The translations under genes were made by a program, and so were the position numbers. From Stramenopiles sp. TOSAG23-6 (lineage: Eukaryota): DNA of 60,587 nt. Every line of letters starts with the position of its first letter. The first letter of the stretch is position 1. Shown one piece after another: positions 1,184-60,587 of the stretch. The notes under the pieces were generated by a model. It had not been told where the DNA came from. It was given only the letters and a program-made list of their open reading frames with translations, and searched no databases. The stretch is taken from contig LT635916.1 in assembly GCA_900128565.1 (NCBI GenBank), positions 1 through 60,587 on the forward strand, read 5' to 3'.

Positions 1184-1859
1184 CTTTTTAAACTTTAAAA
1201 AAATGTATTGTGAATATATATGTTATAAGAAGGTATTGTGAGTATTTTTTTTGAGAATAATATGAGTTGTTTGTAAGAATAGAGTTGGGAAGTTGGGAAG
1301 AGGGGAAGGGTATAGTGATAAATTAAAGAACAATTGAGAATGGCACAAAAGAGAGAGAAATGGAAGAAAGTGTGTAGAATTTTTGGGACAATTTTGAGGA
1401 ATTATTATATCCAATCGAAATTATGTGAAAAGTGAGTGAACTTACCTTTAAATCACTTTAAATTACGAAGGCTCTACTGATACAAGTACGGTGAAAGAAA
1501 AGGAAGAGAAACAAAAGGACAAGAGACAGCAACGGAGAGGAAGAGAGAGAAAGAAAGAAAAGAGAGAGGAAGCGAGCGCGAATTAAAAAACATGACTATC
1601 AAAAATTGACATCAAAAAATACAAAACATCAAAATTCGCTGTTATTTTTCTAAAATCCCCCGCGCAAATAAAGTTANAATTTCGTGTTTTTGATTTGAAT
1701 GACGTCATGACTCAACATCTGTTGTTATCACTAAAAGACTATCTCGTTATATTGAGGTAGCAATCAATACGAATACAATCGGATTCTGTATTTTCTTTGG
1801 TAAGGTGGAATTAAAGTAGTTTGTGCAGACGTCCGAGAGATCCAATACTCTCCAGGATA

Positions 1860-3926
1860 ATGTCATACGCATCAATGGATGCAACAGTATCTGCTATCAT
1901 CCTTGGGGTAGCCATTTTGCTTGCAGCGTTACAACCATCTCAGTGGTTGACAATGATTTGTTGTTTACTTTGTCCGTGCGCTTTTGTTTTATTTTACCGC
2001 ATTAATTTTGGTTCATCAAATGCGAAAGCTCCACCACAATTCAAAACTGGCTTGCCTTTAATAGGTCCATTTATTGCATTTGCAAAAGACCCCCTTGGAA
2101 CAGTTTCACGTGCACGTTCTCAGCTTGGTAACGTGTTTACTATTCGCATGTTTCATATGCAACAAACGTTTCTAGTTGGAAGTGCGGCACATAAAGCTTT
2201 CTTTGAAGCAAGCGACGAAGAACTAGACCAAGCTCCAGTATACCGTTTTATGGTACCAGTATTTGGGAAAGGCGTTGTATATGATGCGCCTCTAACTGTT
2301 CGCCGTCAACAATTTCGAATGTTGGGAAATTCCCTCCGTCCCTCTGGTCTTCGACGTTATCCTGAAGTTATTGCTGCTGAGGCTCGTGACTTTTTTTCGA
2401 CATCATATGGCCCATCTGCAGATGTAGATTTACTCCATTCTATGGCAGATTTGACTATTCTTACAGCAAGTGCAACTCTCCATGGTCCAGATGTACGACA
2501 GAAGTTGCACAAACAAGTTTCTCATTTATTTCGACAAATGGACGAAGGAATATCACCGTTGAGTATAGTTATGCCATATCTTCCAACCCCTGCTCACCGT
2601 CGACGTGATGCTGCTCACCGTAAAATGGTTAAACTCTTTGCTGGAGTCATTCGTGATCGTCGGAAAGCTGAACGTCTTGCAGCAAAAACTACTTCAAATA
2701 AAACATCACCACCTACTGATATTCTTCACAAACTAATTCATGCAAAGTATAAAGATGGCACTAGAGTTCCTGGTCATGAAATTGCAGGGATGTTGATTGC
2801 TGCTCTCTTTGCGGGACAACACACATCTTCTGTAACTGTTACTTGGACAATTTTGTTTTTATTGGATAATCACAGAAAACACGAAAAAGAAAATATAGAA
2901 GGAAAAAGTTGGTTGTCCAAAGTATTGGATGAATTAAATGAAGTTGAAACTTTAGATAATTTATTTTGTAATGGTAAAGTTACTCATGATGATGTCAGTA
3001 AAATGAAAATACTTCATGCTTGTGTCAAAGAATCTATTCGAATGTTCCCTCCTTTAATATTTCTCATGCGTCGTGTTGTGAAAAAACCTTTGGATGTTGA
3101 AGGTTTTAAAGTTCCAGTTGGACATAATGTCATGTATGTTTTATGTTTTTTCAATTTCGAGTTTTTTTTTCGTGCGAAATTTTGTACCTAAAGATTTTTT
3201 TTTTGAAATATTTTTCCAAAATATATGGTCTCTAATGCTGTTGCTCAAAGGTTACCTGAAGTATTCGAAAACCCAAACACGTGGCTTCCAGGAAGATGGC
3301 TTGATTTTGATATTCGAACACTTCCACCGTATTCATTCATTGGTTTTGGAGCTGGGATTCATACCTGTATGGGTGAAAGTTTTGCATTTATGCAGATAAA
3401 GACAATACTTGCTGTTTTACTCACTACGTATGATATGAAATTGACAGGTCCATTACCACCAGCTAGTTATGACGCTATGGTCGTGATGCCACGGGGGCCA
3501 AATATAGTCAAATTTCGTCGTAAATCTGGGATTCTACAGTCATCTGTTGGCGTTTCAGAGAAAGAGAAGACTTCTTTGAAGACAGTTACTACAAAATCTC
3601 AAGGAAAAAAAAAATCAAACATATTAAAGACACTACCTTCATCTAACTTTGAGAAAAATGAAAATTCTGATCCAAATGAAGAGTTTGGTCTAGACAGTTT
3701 CACTATTGAAGAAATTTCAAAACATTCAAAACGAGATGATTTGTGGATAATTGTGAAGGATCGTGTCTATGACGTCACACAATTTTTACCTGTTCATCAA
3801 GGTGGAGATTCGCTTCTTAAATGGGGTGGGAAAGATGCCACTGTCGGTGTCTTTGGACCCCAACATCCTTCCACAGTCCCAACCCTATTAAAACGATATT
3901 TAATTGGAAAAGTTGATAGAAACTAA
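1860..3926 (+). CDS. CYP51: Sterol 14-alpha-demethylase (CYP51) with C-terminal cytochrome b5 domain; exons 1860-3133 and 3227-3926
   Basis: N-terminal TM; YRFMVPVFGKGVVYDA, I-helix AGQHTS, ExxR (ESIR), heme motif FGAGIHTCMGE; b5 domain LWIIVKDRVYDVTQFLPVHQGG...GKDAT...QH. Removing 3134-3226 gives GHNVMVSNAVAQRLPEVF. Confidence 0.92.
3134..3226 (+). mobile_element. 93-nt repeated non-canonical GT-AT intron-like element, copy 1
   Basis: GTATGTTTTAT...TTCGTGCGAAATTTTGTACCTAA...TTTGAAATATTTTTCCAAAATATAT; contains in-frame TAA and TGA; similar to 8075-8166 and 27775-27866. Confidence 0.85.
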
Positions 3927-6670: not shown

Positions 6671-9225
6671 ATGCCTCTAGGTTGGGCTCTTTGTCTATTT
6701 CTCTCTTGCAAATTGTTTGTGCTAACACATTCTATCACTCCTACAGATCCTACAGTGGTCAGTGTTGACGTGGCTGTTGATGGAAAGACTTATATTTTTG
6801 AAGTAAACCCTACCATTTCACCTGATGAAGTGTCCGAAAGTGCACGGAGTTGGTGTGAAAGTCATGGTATATCTCAATCTGCTGATCTAAATACATGCGC
6901 ACAAGCCATTTCCAATAGAGTGCAAAATATTAATGCGTCGCCTGATATAAATTCGTCGATAGAAGCAAAGAACCTGCTTGCTGACGCAATGAAGCTTCAC
7001 CGAACAGGTCACTTGAGTAAAGCCATTGAAGTATATAGTCAACTATTAAAGTTGGATCCATTAAATGGTGATGCCTTTCATTTGCTTGGTGGTGCATTTC
7101 AAGGAAATGGTGATGTTATAGAAGCAATTGAAGCATTTCAAGGGGCTTTACGTGTCGCTCCCAAAGTTCCACAGTTCAGCGTTTCCTTGGCAAAAATACT
7201 ACTTTTTGATGCACCAAGTTTGGAACCCTCAAAACTATTAGATATTAGTGGACACCACACAATAAATGAATGGATTGAATCTGTATTACGTTCTGCTTTA
7301 AACCACGGTGCAATGAAAAGTGAAATATCCGGAAATGATCTTGATGCACTAGGGTTTTTAATGCACTTTCTCAATCGTGAAAATCGTCCCATGGACGCAC
7401 TAAAAGCATTTAACAAGTGGAATACTCTTACTACTCTCGATCCAAAAGCAATAAGCAATGCACTACACCTCGATAACTTTCTTAATAAAAATGCAAAGGC
7501 ATATGCTGAATATATAATGGAGGCAGGCTTAGCTTTACACCGTACAGAGTCACTAGAAGATGCTGTTAATATGTTTGAGGCTGCAGCAGCATTTACACCA
7601 AATTCTTCTCGACCATGGATGAATGCTGGTGTTGTCCTTGTTGCATTGAAGCAACATGATAATGCTGGAAAAAGATTTGTTAGAGCTGTGAATGTACAGA
7701 CTAGTTTAGATTGGAATGCTCTACAAAATTGGCAAGGTCACACATATAATAAACATCAAATGACTCAAACATATAATACTACTACGAAAGCAAAAAAGAA
7801 TAAATTTCGTTGGATTTCTCGTCCATTAAACAAGAAAGTAATTGCGATATATTGCAATGAATATGGAAATAGTTGGTGGCCAAAATGGGGTTGGCGTACT
7901 GCTGGTGGTGGTGGCGGTGGTGGTAGTGGTGGTGGAATTGGTGGCTCAGAAGAAGCTGTTGTATTTCTATCTCGTCAATTAGCTAATATTGGGTATTGGG
8001 TAGAAGTGTATGCTAAACCACCTGATGATCAAATAGGTGAGGAACCTGATGGTAATGTTGTATGGTATCCACATGTATGTTTTATTTTTTTTCAATTTCC
8101 AATTTATTTTTCGTACGAAATTTTGTACCTAACAAAAAACATTTGAAATATTTTCCTACAATACATTCCGCTTTCTCTCTTCTTCCTATGGATGCACCTG
8201 ATATTTTTGTTTCATGGCGGTATGCTGTCTCTGCTACTTTGGGTCGATATGCAGGTTTATCATATATATGGCTTCAAGATATTGGTCGTGATATATCATC
8301 ACAGCTTACTTCGCGTATGATGAATTGTATTGATGGTGTGTTTGCTTTAAGCCATTTTCATGTATCACTATTAGATCCTGTTACACAACCAATGGCAGTG
8401 GTAACACCAAATGCACTCGATCCTGCATTTTTTCGAAATGGTAAAAATGCACCGTGGAAATTTATTTATGGAAGTAACCCTTCCAGAGGTCTTGAACAAT
8501 TACTTACGGTATGGCCAAAGATTCGAAATGGACTTGCTCATATGTCTAAAGAATGGAAGAAACACGCGGAAACAGAAAATATGTTGGATGAATATGAAGA
8601 CGGTGCAACACTTTTTGTATATTATGGATTTTCTGAAGCTTTTATGAAATGGGGTAAAGCATCAATGTCTAACTTTGATGAATGGCTTCGACATATGAAA
8701 ACATTATTAAAACAACCAGGTATTCGATATATTGGTATGGTAGGGCATGGGGAATTAGCCGAAGCATATGCAAGCAGTGGATTTTCCTTATATCCTACTT
8801 CTTTCCCTGAAACTGGTTGTGTATCATTAATGAAAGCACAAGCTATGGGCTCTATTCCGATTACTAGTAGATACACAAAATCAACTCTTCCAGAACTAAC
8901 TGCCGAATTTGACCTTGGACCACCTAGTAGACCTGGTAAAATATCTGATGATCCAGAATGGTTGAATGAGTGGGCTGCATCGGTCATTACAGCAGCTGGG
9001 GCTACAGGTGAGAGATTAATAAGTATGAAAAAACATAGAGAGAATATGATTCATTGGGCAAGAAAGAAATTTTTATGGTCACATGTTGCGCACCTATGGC
9101 ATCGATCGTTTCAGCGAGGTGGGGAGAGATTATTTGATGATAAAAAACAAAAGCCAAGATCTATATATTTTGATGAAGAAACTATTGATGCATCGCATGA
9201 AGCAGTATTTTCAAAGAAACAATGA
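6671..9225 (+). CDS. Secretory-pathway TPR-repeat GT-B (GT4-like) glycosyltransferase; exons 6671-8074 and 8167-9225
   Basis: Signal peptide, TPR helices, GIGGSEEAVVFLSRQLA, DIFVSWR, YGSNPSRGLEQLL, YPTSFPETGCVSLMKAQAMG; the two ORFs join in frame when 8075-8166 is removed. Confidence 0.85.
8075..8166 (+). mobile_element. 92-nt repeated non-canonical GT-AT intron-like element, copy 2
   Basis: GTATGTTTTAT...TTTCGTACGAAATTTTGTACCTAAC...TTTGAAATATTTTCCTACAATACAT; contains no AG; removal gives VWYPH|SAFSLLPMDAPDIFVSWR. Confidence 0.85.
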
Positions 9226-25798: not shown

Positions 25799-25820
25799 AA
25801 TAATAATAGTAACTATGGTT

Positions 25821-26657
25821 TTAATTAGATGATTGTGCCATATTTTTAGCGTTAAGTCTTCTTGTTATACATAAAGTATCATTATCATCTTTACATCTTT
25901 TACACTTACTATCATTTGGATTACATTCCCAGTAAGGCACAAAAGCACCAGACCGTTTTCGAGCTTCACTGCTCTTTCTATTGACACAAATGCAACGAAT
26001 ATTTGTGCGATTTTTATCATGAAAGTCTAAATAAGTGTACTCCCTTGGAACATGCGTTTCATCACACCAAACCGTTGATCCATCAACTGCAGTCCACTGG
26101 CTATTACACCTTGGATATTTTATAGTATCAGCTTCTGAAAGTTTCTCATTTTCTTCCCTTTGTTCAATTCTTTTATTTACTATTCTCAATTCTTCTGTAG
26201 GCCGTCCTGAATCATCATAATATCGACCAACTAGCACACCCTTAAATGTGTATTTTTCATGATTTTCATAAAAAGATTTCCAATCAACGACTCCCTTTAA
26301 CTCTCCAGAACTCAGAGTGGTGACATCGTCAGTTAAATTGTCCCCTTCAAAAATACCAGTTGCGAATGACGCAGATATATCACACCCACTAAAGCACGCA
26401 TACCCACCATTTTTACCATAATATTCCCTGCCTTTAGTCACATCGTATACTCGGCCTAGCACAGCAAGATAAATTTCATCTGGATTATTGGGTCCAAACT
26501 TTGAGAGCTCATTAACTGTAAATATTCTATTAATTGTCTCCGTTTCCACAAGAGGAGAAGAAGAGCCAGGAATATTGAGGTCATTTGTAAAAAAGATACC
26601 GATAGCCAGAGCAACTAATGCTACTAATATCATGGTCAGGATAGAAATATAATTCAT
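25821..26657 (-). CDS. CYB5D2: Neuferricin-like MAPR/cytochrome b5-like heme-binding protein
   Basis: N-terminal hydrophobic segment, YLAVLGRVYDVTKGREYYG, DISASFATG, GVLVGRYYD, YPRCNSQW...VWC. Confidence 0.85.
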   Translation of the reverse strand: MNYISILTMILVALVALAIGIFFTNDLNIPGSSSPLVETETINRIFTVNELSKFGPNNPDEIYLAVLGRVYDVTKGREYYGKNGGYACFSGCDISASFATGIFEGDNLTDDVTTLSSGELKGVVDWKSFYENHEKYTFKGVLVGRYYDDSGRPTEELRIVNKRIEQREENEKLSEADTIKYPRCNSQWTAVDGSTVWCDETHVPREYTYLDFHDKNRTNIRCICVNRKSSEARKRSGAFVPYWECNPNDSKCKRCKDDNDTLCITRRLNAKNMAQSSN

Positions 26658-26924
26658 TCTATTTCGTGATTATGGCTGTGAATCATAATACTATTGGATT
26701 GATTTTGTTTGGGAGAGAGTGTTTAATCATTTAATGGTTGATGTCAACAAGCCGACTAATAGCAAATCTGAATTTGACACGTGTTTGACATCATTCTAGA
26801 AAAAAATGTAGCCTAACTTGCTATACGATACGTAGTGTGTCTGTCAGACTCTGTCTACTATCCAGTTGATGTAATTGTACAAGTACTAGCATCTTGTTTG
26901 AAAAGAATACAATAATAGCTAATA

Positions 26925-28447
26925 ATGAGCAAGAAAAATATTGCGGTTATTGGAGGTGGTATTAGTGGATGCGTTTCTGCTGCTTTTCTTCGAATGAGTG
27001 GTCACAATGTCACAATATTTGAAAGTAATGCTTTCTTGGGTGGAAGAGCTATAACCCTTCAAACAAATTCTTTGGAAGCTAGTACAGAGAGTTGTTCATC
27101 AATATCGAATATTGATTTGGGTGCACAGTTTATTACGGTAACAGATCCACGCTTCAGGGTTTTCATTAATTCTCCTATAATGCAAGGGATACTTCAGCCA
27201 TGGAGTCAGAATTTTTCAGTTATTGGTTGTACCCCAGGTCATAGTGCAGTTTTACAACGAGACATTGCTCTCCAAAATTTCAAACTAGATGTTGCAAAAG
27301 AGTATAGCAATGATGAAGTTCAGCTGCAGCGTAATGCTCCAATGAATTTTTGTGGTTTTTTAGAATGTGAAAGAAAGGCAAAAAGTGTAGAGGAATCTAG
27401 AACAATCTATACTGGCCGTGATGGTGTTGGAAGTTTCTGTTATGACTTACTCAAACGAACAGGTGTTCATGATATTGTTAGTGATGCATATGTGAAATCT
27501 GTTGATTTTCAACAGTCTAGTCTGTCATGGTCTGTCATTACAGAAGAAAACAAATCAAATTCAAATTTTACAAAGTTAACTTGTGATAGAGAAAACTCTC
27601 ATGGTCCTTTTGACTTTTGTATTTTAGCCAATAATGATGCAAAGTTTGCTGCTGATACGATTGACAAGTTAATGTGTGATACAACAGATCATGAAATGCG
27701 TGATACACAAGTTCGTGAAATTATCAACGATTTCACTTTGAAACTTCGAGAATTGGAAAAGACAAATGTAAACTGTATGTTTTATTTTTTTTCAATTTCA
27801 ATTTTGTTTTCGTACGAAGTTTTGTACCTAACGGGTTTTTTTTTGAAATATTTTTCCAAAATACATGTTATTCACTTGTTGTTAAATTTGAAACTTTTTT
27901 AGATGTTCCATTTGATGCTGCTTCGCTTCAGGGTTCTTTAGCACTTTCATTTCTCTCTCGAGATTCATCCAAACCAGGTAAATATAATACATATGAAGGA
28001 TCTACAAATGTTGAAGAAGAATTCTGGGTTGTACAATCAACTCCTGAGTTTGCTGCTTGGATAGATTCATTTTTTCCCGACATTGAAATGGAAAAATCTC
28101 AAACTATCAAACTACAAAAAGCTGAAAAAGAATTATGGTCAGAATTTAAGCGTGTAATTGAACCAATTTTGAGAAAAGAAGCAACAAAATCGGATGGTTT
28201 TGACAATAAGATTAATTTCCCCAAACATTGTTTTGTTGAAACAAAAAGATGGGAAAAAGCATTCTTTGAAACACCAATGAAATTAAATGAAAATGATCAA
28301 AATAATAATGATGCTGTAACATTTAAACCATGGTGTCTTGCACTGGCGGCTGATTATTTAGGGGAAATACAATGTATACAGAGTGCGGCCCTCAGTGGTC
28401 TTATGTCGGCTGATAGAATAAATCAATGGATATCCTTAAATAAATAG
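26925..28447 (+). CDS. Renalase-like FAD-dependent oxidoreductase; exons 26925-27774 and 27867-28447
   Basis: IAVIGGGISG, DLGAQFIT; after removing 27775-27866: CYSLVVKFETFLDVPFDAA, RDSSKPG, WVVQSTPEFA, then continuous with ORF 28088-28447 (ADYL...AALSG). Confidence 0.88.
27775..27866 (+). mobile_element. 92-nt repeated non-canonical GT-AT intron-like element, copy 3
   Basis: GTATGTTTTAT...TTCGTACGAAGTTTTGTACCTAAC...TTTGAAATATTTTTCCAAAATACAT; removal corrects the frameshift (AAC T|GT TAT). Confidence 0.85.
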
Positions 28448-28486
28448 AACTAATTATTTATAAGAAAAAATATTAAGGTACTTTCT

Positions 28487-31400
28487 CTATTTAGTAACTT
28501 GCTTACTTTCCTGTGATTTCATATAATTTCGTGTAGCGGTTGATACGCGATATCTTTGGGCAGTTGTGAGTCTAGTAGGAATATTGCACTCATCAACTTC
28601 TCTTGCAACAACAGATAAAACTTCCTGTGGTAGAAGGAGTTTATTCAAATGTACTTCATATAAGTTGTGTTTGGCATTTCGTTTAGCTTGTCGCTCTTCA
28701 GCTTCATTTGATGGGACAGCAAGGCAAGCCCAACTACCATTTAAATGTCGACTTTTAATCGATTTAAGTCCAGTAATCATAAACACACAACTAGCTGTGG
28801 GCTTTTGGTGTATCCCACAGAAATCGGTGGTAACAAGTCCCATCTTCGGTTGGTTTTCATCAAGCAATTGCCGTTTTGAACAATTTGGATTCTTACAAAA
28901 TTCTGTCTTGGTAAATGATTTAAACTTAGAACTGTTCTGTTTAACTTTGACTTCTTTAAGACCAAGCTTTTTTCGTAAATACTTTGCTGCGTTAACCATG
29001 ACACCTTTAGTGGAGGATATGGAATATCGAAGTTGCTTGTAATGTGCGGATGGAAAACGTGCGTGGAGTTCACGCACGTAATCTCTTAGGTCGTTTGCTG
29101 TTGTTTGTGAATCCTTCAAACCTCCTTTATCTTGCAAAGTCATTGCCCACTTTTGTGTCTTGAGTTCCTCCATTCTTCCCAAATCTTTAGTAGCACCAAC
29201 TGCAAGCTTTATTAAATTTTTTCGCGACACTAAAACTCTACGTGTATCTCCACTTAAAAGCCGCACAATCCATGTTCGCTTAGGATCGTTTGGATTGTAT
29301 GTTTTTGGTCGCCGTTTCATAGGGATTCCAGCAGATGTGGTATAAGATTCTAATGGACGAGCATCAAATAATTCCAATGCAACGACCCATTCGTTCTCCA
29401 GTGTTGCATAACTTCGGCCGACATTGTTTATTTTTAGTGTATCGCCTTTCAATGGAATCCTTGTTTGACCATTCAATTCATTAGACCTAGTTGAAAGTCC
29501 TCTTTGGGTTTTACGCTTATAACTTACACGTTTCTTTTTACCTTTATGCTGAGCGAATTGAACACTGTCGTTGTCGTCTTCATCTTTATCAGGTGTTTCA
29601 TTTTCTAAAAGTATTTTATTTTCAGCAACATTTTCTTCCCTTTCACCAACATCTAATAAAACATTAAATGTGTTGTTACTATTTTCTCCATCAATAACAC
29701 CTTTAAACCAAGTTTTTTTCCCCCGTAACAAAAACATCTTTNTCTGAGAACNTGTNCGCGCACACTATTTCGAAGAATCGGATATTTCAGGTTTTCACAA
29801 AACAGGTTTATCACTGTCTCTTCTTCCTGTCCTATCAAAGATTCAATTTCTACACCAAAACTTCCATCATTATTAAAACGAACAATACGACCGCTTTCAA
29901 ATATTCTCAGATCAGGGGGTGCTTTTGGAATACCAATCTCAGATGCTTTCGTTTTAATATTATTGTTCTCAACATCCACTTTTTCATCTTTATCTTTTGT
30001 TTTATTTGTATTTTCTTCGCCACTTTCATCTTCATCTTCTGTGTAATCGCTATCAGATTCACTGTCTTTTGATTCAGTCGTAGGGTCGCCTGGGACAATT
30101 TTTTTCTCTTGCGTAGCCAAAACTCGAGCTCCTATAACATAATAAGGATCACCTTTGAACTTATTCCATAGAGGGTCGGGGTCTGTGACATCGTAAACAT
30201 CATTCTTTTTCCCTCGATCTTTCGCTTTTGGCCATCTATATCGGACCAATTGACCTCGCCTGAGGGGCATTTGAACAGCAGTGCGCATGTTCTTTCCATG
30301 GAGCCAGAAATAATCCCATGGACCACCCCCTTTACTAATTTCTAACTTGTAGAGCTTATGCTCTGTTCCATTAATTAGTACAGCCTTTGGTACGTTTTTA
30401 TCTCCATCATTTTCATCCGGAGCACCATGTATTGCCACATGTAGCAATTGATCAAGTAATTTATTGTTACTCCGGATTTCGCGTAGATCTGACCTTAGTT
30501 TTGGCGTAGCTCCAATGAGTTTTAATTCACTATATGACATTCGGAGCTTGGCCATTTGTATTTTTTCAACTTCGTCTAATGCCCTTTGTTCTTGCTGTCG
30601 AACTATTGCTGTAGCTGGTCTCGCAGGTCGAGCACTATCCCACTCTTGTGTACCGCCATATTTTTCTACAAAATAANATTTTGAGAATGGTGCTTGGGAA
30701 TCGGCAATGTCGTCATTTTTTTCTTCGCGAANAAAGTCATATCGCAACTCTGCTCCATTTAGAACTCGCTCTAATTCCATTTTAGCTGATTTGACGTCCA
30801 ACGCACTTTCTCTCAAAGCAGCAGTAAGTTGAGCAGCTCGTAGCTTCACTTGCTTTGTTTGTGTTAACCCTTTCAAAGTAATTGCGTCTGGTCTCCGACC
30901 CCATCGATCTTCTAAAAGTGTTGCTTGGGGAAATCTATTGAGCAATTCATTTACTACATTCGTTCTTCCCCAATAAACGGCAAGATGAAGAGGCGTTGAA
31001 TTATCATTTGTCCTGGCATCACATTTTGCCCCTGAATTTAATAGTAACCGTAATGATTCAAGGCATCCAGAAAATGCAGCAGCGTGAAGAGGTGTCCAAC
31101 CACTTTTGTCACAAATACTAATGGAAGCTTTTGAGTCTGGATCGACATATGCATTTCCTGATGAAAGAAGTTTTCTAACAATAACATGATGACGGGCTTG
31201 TGCTGCCCAATGTAAAGCAGTTCGACCATGGTAATCACAACTATTTATAGGAACTCCTTCTTTCAGCATCGCCTCAACACTTTCGAGGTCACCAAACCGT
31301 GCAGACCTTACAAAGTCAAAGGCACGTTGGTCTTTTTCTGAAATTGCAAAGATAGCTTTGTGTGGTTCTGCGTGCATCATCCTATTTGATTCAACACTAT

Positions 31401-60313: not shown

Positions 60314-60587
60314 CAAGGTTATAGAATTGGGAAGGAATGACACGAAATTTGAAAAAAAAAAATAATTCACCTACCAAAATTTCATACCTAAAGCAGAACA
60401 CGAAATCCTGCTGGAATCATCTTTAGCAACTCAAAAATAATTGAATTTACTATAAAACCAATTTCAAATTTATTATTTTTTTTTTTGCTACAAAATTTTT
60501 GTACTTAACAATTTTTTTTTATTTTTGAGTTGCTAAAGATGATTCCAGCAGGATTTCGTGTCATTCCTTCCCAATTCTATAACCTTG
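60314..60587. repeat. Interrupted long inverted repeat at the window end
   Basis: 60314-60348 is the reverse complement of 60553-60587 (35 nt); 60398-60440 is the reverse complement of 60519-60561 (43 nt). Confidence 0.9.

Follow-up and report, generated by a model that had tools for sequence, protein, structure and literature searches.

The window analyzed here (positions 1 to 60,587 of contig LT635916.1 of Stramenopiles sp. TOSAG23-6) is part of a compact, AT-rich eukaryotic genome assembled as 21.1 Mb in 6236 contigs, and it contains three copies of a single repeated intron family (Table 1). Copy 3 interrupts a gene whose product resembles renalase, and at its downstream border two potential 3' splice sites compete, the AT that ends the repeat and an AG that lies beyond it. 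Copy 1 interrupts a gene (window 1815-3926, + strand) in which a cytochrome P450 is fused to a C-terminal cytochrome b5 domain.

Table 1. Coordinates of the intron copies, the renalase-like gene and the elements of copy 3 within the window.
Feature	Position	Strand	Remarks
Copy 1 of the intron family	3134..3226	+	93 nt, AT|GT..TAT, host gene encodes cytochrome P450/cytochrome b5; next in-frame AG lies 24 nt past its end
Copy 2 of the intron family	8075..8166	+	92 nt, AT|GT..CAT, inside a TPR gene; the 80 nt that follow are free of AG
Exon 1, renalase-like FAD oxidoreductase	26925..27774	+	Ends AAC T, phase 1
5' splice site of copy 3, ACT|GTATGTTT	27772..27782	+	
Copy 3 of the intron family	27775..27866	+	92 nt, GTATG...AATACAT, GT..AT ends
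Branch-point-like TACCTAAC	27825..27832	+	Putative branch A at 27831, from U2-type consensus
Family 3' end motif ATTTTTCCAAAATAC plus acceptor AT (27865-6)	27850..27866	+	
36-nt segment, exon under the AT reading, strand CYSLVVKFETFLD	27867..27902	+	Holds the competing TTTTTTAG
Exon 2 to stop codon, renalase-like gene	27867..28447	+	

Copy 3 carries a short terminal inverted repeat (GTAT/ATAC) and the family end AAAATACAT, which stops at 27866, and its 2-nt flank repeat is broken (CT versus AT). The putative branch A is 35 nt upstream of the AT end and 71 nt upstream of the AG at 27902, and the competing TTTTTTAG (27895-27902), in which six T stand before the AG, supplies both the first AG after the branch A and the sole AG from 27831 to 27902. 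The first-pass annotation had positioned the CT before the GT at 27775-6, the family end at 27866 and the AG at 27902, 36 nt apart (27902-27866), and was accurate throughout; it was also right that the AG at 27901-27902 is in frame and that its use swaps CYSLVVKFETFLD for Y. Splicing to 27866 would yield a protein of 477 aa containing ...TNVN-CYSLVVKFETFLD-VPFDAAS, and splicing to 27902 one of 465 aa containing ...TNVN-Y-VPFDAAS.

The two products were compared with homologues of the host protein. The exon 1 region matches NAD_binding_8 (E 5.5e-11), and exon 2 alone matched no solved structure and no Pfam or NCBIfam family. Exon 2 used as a query recovered 49 proteins, from which 31 of 300-699 aa (24-55% identical) were taken into a profile that left out P0003 (the public model of this very gene), one 2296-aa repeat protein and 16 short proteins. 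Among solved structures this profile matches renalase 4zcc best (E 2.4e-44), with a score far above that of other flavoproteins and a renalase-family match that spans the whole fold; the likeness to the renalase family (Pseudomonas 4zcc/3kkj, human 3qj4) is one of sequence profile, and the host protein is longer than its members. The query began at the disputed strand, and many matches aligned only from residue 13 onward, yet these proteins have the strand. Against the profile the AT product scored 336.2 bits and the AG product 312.8, and of the 13 columns missing from the AG form at least 10 residues are present in 31 of 31 homologues. The spacing from the preceding helix to PFD is 23-29 residues in the homologues, 25 in the AT product and 13 in the AG product. 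The CYSLVVKFETFLD segment aligns with PTWAVALAFETPL of renalase 4zcc and corresponds to strand 278-287 in the AlphaFold model of homologue P0005 (mean pLDDT 91.9). These results support the view that the 13 residues around CYSLVVKFETFLD form a conserved strand that is absent from the AG product, as the first-pass annotation had supposed in calling the segment the renalase-family strand before PFDA; the alignment of both products that it proposed was run, and the AT product fits whereas the AG product is without the strand. Because the AG product would lose this strand, AT is the likely acceptor.

The family to which copy 3 belongs is represented by 1419 candidates in the genome, and the 40 that were scored are 89-96% alike. 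These are many similar introns at unrelated sites, and their removal restores the host reading frame, as is characteristic of introners. Of 121 donor-plus-branch candidates, 105 were kept using a cutoff of at least 9 bits for the 3' motif (scored without its last two bases) and 16 were dropped; one duplicate was removed to leave 104, a set that is AG-enriched on purpose. An unbiased set comprises 51 copies in 860 kb chosen without regard to their ends, and these end in AT (46 copies), TT (3), AG (1) or CT (1). Genome-wide, the exact 22-mer of the family end occurs 1854 times ending in AT and 41 times ending in AG, totals that are not copy numbers, since some contigs are redundant. The last two bases of the intron match the last two of the upstream exon in 39 of the 51 copies versus 32.8 when shuffled (p = 0.00025), and among the 104, the seven ends other than AT or AG all copy the last two bases of the exon. 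In discordant pairs it is the intron end that keeps AT, by 11 to 1 in the unbiased set (p = 0.006); in the full set, with its enrichment for AG, the excess of 16 to 7 is not significant (p = 0.09). The 2-nt duplication is thus real, on top of a preference for AT. The inverted repeat of the family is only 4 nt long.

Several arrangements of the repeat were observed in passing. Copies lie back to back or partly duplicated at L113:7483-7680 (+), L132:5891 (+), L030:460 (+) and L064 (-) 8394-8421; in tandem copies the CAT of one is followed directly by the GTATG of the next, which suggests insertion into the junction left by an earlier copy. At the contig end (window 60314-60587), family-like cores on both strands are enclosed by perfect inverted arms of 43 and 35 nt, representing either an assembly fold-back or two opposite-facing copies. 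From RNA run X1 (share 0.11), 348 contigs were placed on window positions 25800-28600 at 80% likeness, nearly all of them on the repeat and with no joints. The contigs on the intron family (window 27774-27867) have a summed depth of about 8700 and the exons almost none; this pile-up could reflect lariats, unspliced RNA, DNA or a related organism.

How the acceptor is chosen across the family was assessed in the 92 copies that do not end in AG, by asking whether the reading frame stays open for 40 codons on each side of the junction. The frame was open in 80 of 92 copies when cut at the family end, compared with 17 and 10 when cut one and two bases further on and 32 when cut at the first AG. 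Among the 12 copies not open at the family end, six were open only in a shifted frame and six in none, and not all of these are explained. Of 61 unambiguous copies, 42 would be thrown out of frame by a cut at the first AG, and scanning for the first AG was rejected on the counts of 80 versus 32. In addition, 27 of the 92 copies have an AG between the branch point and the family end, which is skipped although it is nearer the branch point. AGs are therefore passed over generally, both downstream of the family end and upstream of it. The distance from branch A to the end is 31-48 nt in 49 of the 51 unbiased copies, and in the 12 AG-ending copies the AG occupies the family position, 33-55 nt from branch A; AG is accepted only there (41 AG versus 1854 AT exact ends). 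The frame counts, and the fact that AG-ending copies share the position, indicate that the family end determines where the cut falls and that the dinucleotide there is loosely read. Scanning for the first AT was also rejected, since the stretch from branch A to the CAT end already contains AAT, TAT and AAT.

In this setting the in-frame AG of copy 3 is ordinary, since one occurs within 36 nt in 33 of the 92 copies. In 28 of 92 copies the first AG falls in frame, indistinguishable from the chance rate of 1/3 (p = 0.58), and an in-frame AG was consequently rejected as a sign of selection. A strong pyrimidine run followed by AG within 40 nt is less common, being found in six of the 92 copies, copy 3 among them. 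The proposal that copy 3 offers a natural test of YAT versus YAG choice is thus sound in that the copy is usable for this purpose, although it is one among many such copies and not unique.

That both acceptors are used at copy 3, the AT giving the enzyme and the AG giving more than 10% in-frame mis-splicing that escapes nonsense decay, is unlikely. Copy 3 does belong to the small group with a strong pyrimidine run and a nearby AG, and its donor lacks one U1 pair, but in several copies a TTTTAG located 10-14 nt past the branch point is skipped where splicing to it would run into a stop within 25 codons. It is highly improbable that splicing goes mainly to the AG at 27902 and that a damaged or relaxed gene makes the 465-aa protein without the strand. 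Such use would accord with the place of this AG as the first after branch A, in frame and behind six T, with the acceptance of AG at the family position, and with P0003, whose intron ends at 27902. Against it, all 31 homologues keep the strand, the loss of which costs 23 bits; the AG lies 71 nt from branch A, compared with the 31-48 nt typical of the family; and use of the first AG shifts the frame in the majority of unambiguous copies. P0003 itself is a prediction and no proof that this AG is used. To judge from its sequence, its intron starts at a weak inner GT at 27835, so that the first 59 nt of the repeat are translated as coding sequence; its helix-to-PFD spacing of 33 is outside the homologue range, and it scores 331.5 bits against the profile. 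The same model is also without two short stretches that are open in the window, apparently as invented introns.

The exact register of the cut is a separate matter. Since TGT is repeated at both borders of copy 3, cuts at TG..CA, GT..AT, TA..TG and AT..GT all give identical mRNA, and junction reads alone cannot tell these four registers apart. The best evidence for the register is an altered U1 snRNA, which was absent from the earlier reading. Genes for U5, U2, U1 and U4 lie head to tail within 640 nt (G000:C1146:9-645, L144; contig C6122 shares the first 664 nt), and the only U1 found is located between U2 and U4 (G000:C1146:349-508). It aligns over all 166 positions of the RF00003 model, including four stem-loops and the Sm site (E 3e-12), with a score of 54.1 bits that is below the Rfam gathering cut-off of 69.5. 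This candidate begins AAACGUACAUG where the Rfam consensus has AUACUUACCUG, differing at positions 2, 5 and 9 (U2A, U5G, C9A), and reverse-complementing AAACGUACAUG gives CAU|GUACGUUU. Against the family donor CAU|GUAYGUUU, each of the three substitutions replaces a mismatch with a base pair. The changed positions face +7, +4 and -1 of the donor and pair in 51, 51 and 46 of the 51 unbiased donors, where canonical U1 would pair in 0, 0 and 1. The search pattern itself prescribed donor positions +1 to +8, so that only -3 to -1 are independent. Exon base -1 is T in 46 of 51 copies against a background of 0.30. Over 104 donors, the mean U1-donor duplex energy is -9.8 kcal/mol with the organism's own U1 and -1.9 kcal/mol with canonical U1, and the copy 3 donor forms eight Watson-Crick pairs and one wobble with the former and six pairs with the latter. 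We regard this RNA as the putative working U1 of the organism.

A canonical U1 was not found in the incomplete assembly, in which its 5' end occurs as three exact 12-mers (control, 2), none of them an Rfam match. Such a gene may be missing from the assembly, given two apparently ordinary GTAAGT..YAG introns (L139:8395, + strand, and L121:2324, + strand; 92-94 nt) that are unrelated to the family and whose +4 base would form a mismatch with the altered U1. A looser donor search gave 72 candidates, and most of the intron-like ones were judged by eye to be diverged family members. In metagenomes, the altered U1 5' end gave 42 pattern matches; 40 of them were scanned with Rfam and none was a U1.

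U12-type AT-AC introns have the donor consensus ATATCCT. Copy 3 has instead the donor GTATGTTT and, when both cuts are moved two bases upstream, reads CT..AC. The first-pass annotation held that the flanks exclude an AT-AC intron, and this stands insofar as the shifted register reads CT..AC and an intron at 27777..27864 shifts the frame; the CT before GT, taken alone, leaves a CT..AC cut possible. That the whole family is cut two bases upstream at both ends (NN-GT...AC), mostly as AT-AC and at copy 3 as CT..AC, by a minor-type or altered spliceosome, is nevertheless scarcely credible. In its favor, the 39 of 51 copies whose flanks match would give identical mRNA, an AC almost always precedes the end, and at copy 3 the products differ by one residue, Lys for Asn, which homology cannot decide (335.6 versus 336.2 bits); A-C ends are, moreover, described as isosteric with G-G (PMC13326754). 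On the other side, C8 and A7 of U1 pair canonically with GT, giving nine pairs at 27775 compared with six at 27773; the upstream dinucleotide varies (eight types) whereas the intron end stays AT; the shifted register creates a stop in L038; and GUAUGU fits the ACAGAGA box of U6. A register test on solved homologues at Pex19 (L081) and insulinase (L111) gave alignments that ended before the junctions.

The remainder of the spliceosome appears ordinary where it was covered. U6 has the usual ACAGAGA box, the branch-pairing stretch of U2 and loop 1 of U5 match the Rfam consensus, and U4 looks ordinary. The branch box TACCTAAC is complementary to U2 GUAGUA, which is unchanged, and the GT donor is complementary to U6 and to U1, in the latter case the organism's own and not the canonical one. 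Of the features of canonical U2-type introns, it is the 3' AG that the copy 3 family lacks, and reading an AG there removes the conserved strand. Prp8, examined over 941 of 2021 aa, is close to human, and we claim no telling change in it. Two clusters of differences from human Prp8 were seen in otherwise near-invariant sequence of L145, at about 308-316 and 498-512 of the stretch (TAGQATFTK for ASGSTTFTK, and RKHFRQYIQYRTD for RTDFKQYQVLKQN). A U2AF65-like gene is present (L162:1105-3069, - strand); both of its central RRMs match the first RRM of the U2AF_lg model, which may be typical of the lineage. U2AF1 was not among the 16 of 23 zf-CCCH matches that were translated, the other seven being either weak or second fingers of those same ORFs, and a search with a degenerate motif gave 0. 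Removal without the spliceosome, through pairing of the element ends as proposed for euglenid and Amoebophrya non-canonical introns, is barely conceivable. UGUAU/AUACA close the predicted intron fold, which would suit such a route, but they offer only 4-5 end pairs, and donor, branch box and U1 all match the major spliceosome, of which snRNAs and Prp8 are present.

It is quite probable that copy 3 is a major-spliceosome introner cut at GT 27775 and AT 27866, its 3' cut set by the family motif, with the AG at 27902 unused or a minor leak. Given the conserved strand, the working mRNA almost certainly uses the AT acceptor. The outcome at copy 3 is strongly predicted to be AT, and the locus would make a fair bench test, though one whose in-frame AG is of a common kind. 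In the mechanism that we propose, the donor would be defined as usual by U1 C8 on G+1, and U1 A9 would favor exons ending in ..AT before the GT; the catalytic steps would presumably accept G+1 with U-1. The 3' cut would be set by the family end motif, some 33-45 nt from the branch point, and not by scanning for the first AG, falling right after TTTTTCCAAAATAC+NN, so that the AG at 27902, at a distance of 71 nt, would be out of range, and AT, AG and the rarer TT, CT and AC would be accepted at the family end position. The element would insert with a 2-nt duplication, such that the last two exon bases recur as the last two of the intron. AT acceptors would then predominate because sites ending in AT make the best donors and the exon end is duplicated on insertion. 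In the order of events that we infer, the CT flank of copy 3 would have arisen either because the exon base changed later or because a CT end was corrected to AT.

More tentatively, and with slightly less than even confidence, we propose that the splice consensus of this lineage has been recoded from AG|GT...AG| to AT|GT...AT|. A dominant introner and the U1 changes C9A, U5G and U2A would have co-evolved within an otherwise ordinary set of U2, U5, U6 and Prp8, with a motif-and-distance choice of the 3' site, little or no reading of AG, and U2AF1 lost or changed. The complementarity between the U1 and the family donors suggests that the spliceosome and the introns that invaded this genome have undergone mutual adaptation.

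Parts of this system have counterparts elsewhere, as far as the portions of the cited sources accessible to us describe them. The introners of the Chrysochromulina type (PMC9860276) likewise comprise many near-identical copies that bring their own donor, gain an acceptor by flank duplication and leave mRNA length unchanged; here, the duplication is of 2 nt rather than 4 nt, the inverted ends are short (GTAT/ATAC) and the acceptor is AT rather than AG. Among the non-canonical U2 introns that Fritillaria borealis and F. pellucida possess (PMC13326754), AT is the most frequent 3' end (34% and 44%, respectively); as here, YAY stands at the end of the intron as well as of the exon before it, and the major spliceosome is used. 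The 5' ends in Fritillaria are mostly non-GT and diverse, with two U1 versions that have identical 5' ends and a duplicated U2AF, whereas here the donor is a uniform GTAYGTTT, nearly all introns seen are of one family, and U1 itself is altered. The U1 5' end is altered in Entamoeba and Mastigamoeba (bioRxiv 10.1101/2022.06.08.495308), where, in the text available, AACAAAC pairs with GUUUGUU; the changes described there face intron positions, whereas C9A here faces exon position -1 and accompanies a non-AG acceptor. The introner elements of Amoebophrya (PMC7789003), another marine protist, share repeated non-canonical introns with direct and inverted repeats, but there the borders vary widely, the inverted repeats span 8-20 nt and no U1 was found, in contrast to the fixed signals and matching U1 found here. 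The consulted part of PMC12130899 gives only AG and AC as 3' sites and does not mention GT-AT or MAST. A full-text literature search, with subscription papers and supplements outside its scope, returned no dominant protist GT-AT family and no U1 changed at position 9. What is new here is a U1 matched to the donors of an introner, including the exon side; AT-ended introns and U1 co-evolution are separately known elsewhere.

For the annotation of this organism, the results mean that public gene models are wrong at such sites, as exemplified by P0003, which makes protein from intron. If the recoding is true, copy 3 would bypass a perfect polypyrimidine-AG in favor of AT. Few features of nuclear splicing are as constant as the 3' AG and the U1 5' end, and a genome with thousands of AT-ending introns and a matched U1 would link introner bursts, the proto-splice site and the checking of the last intron base.
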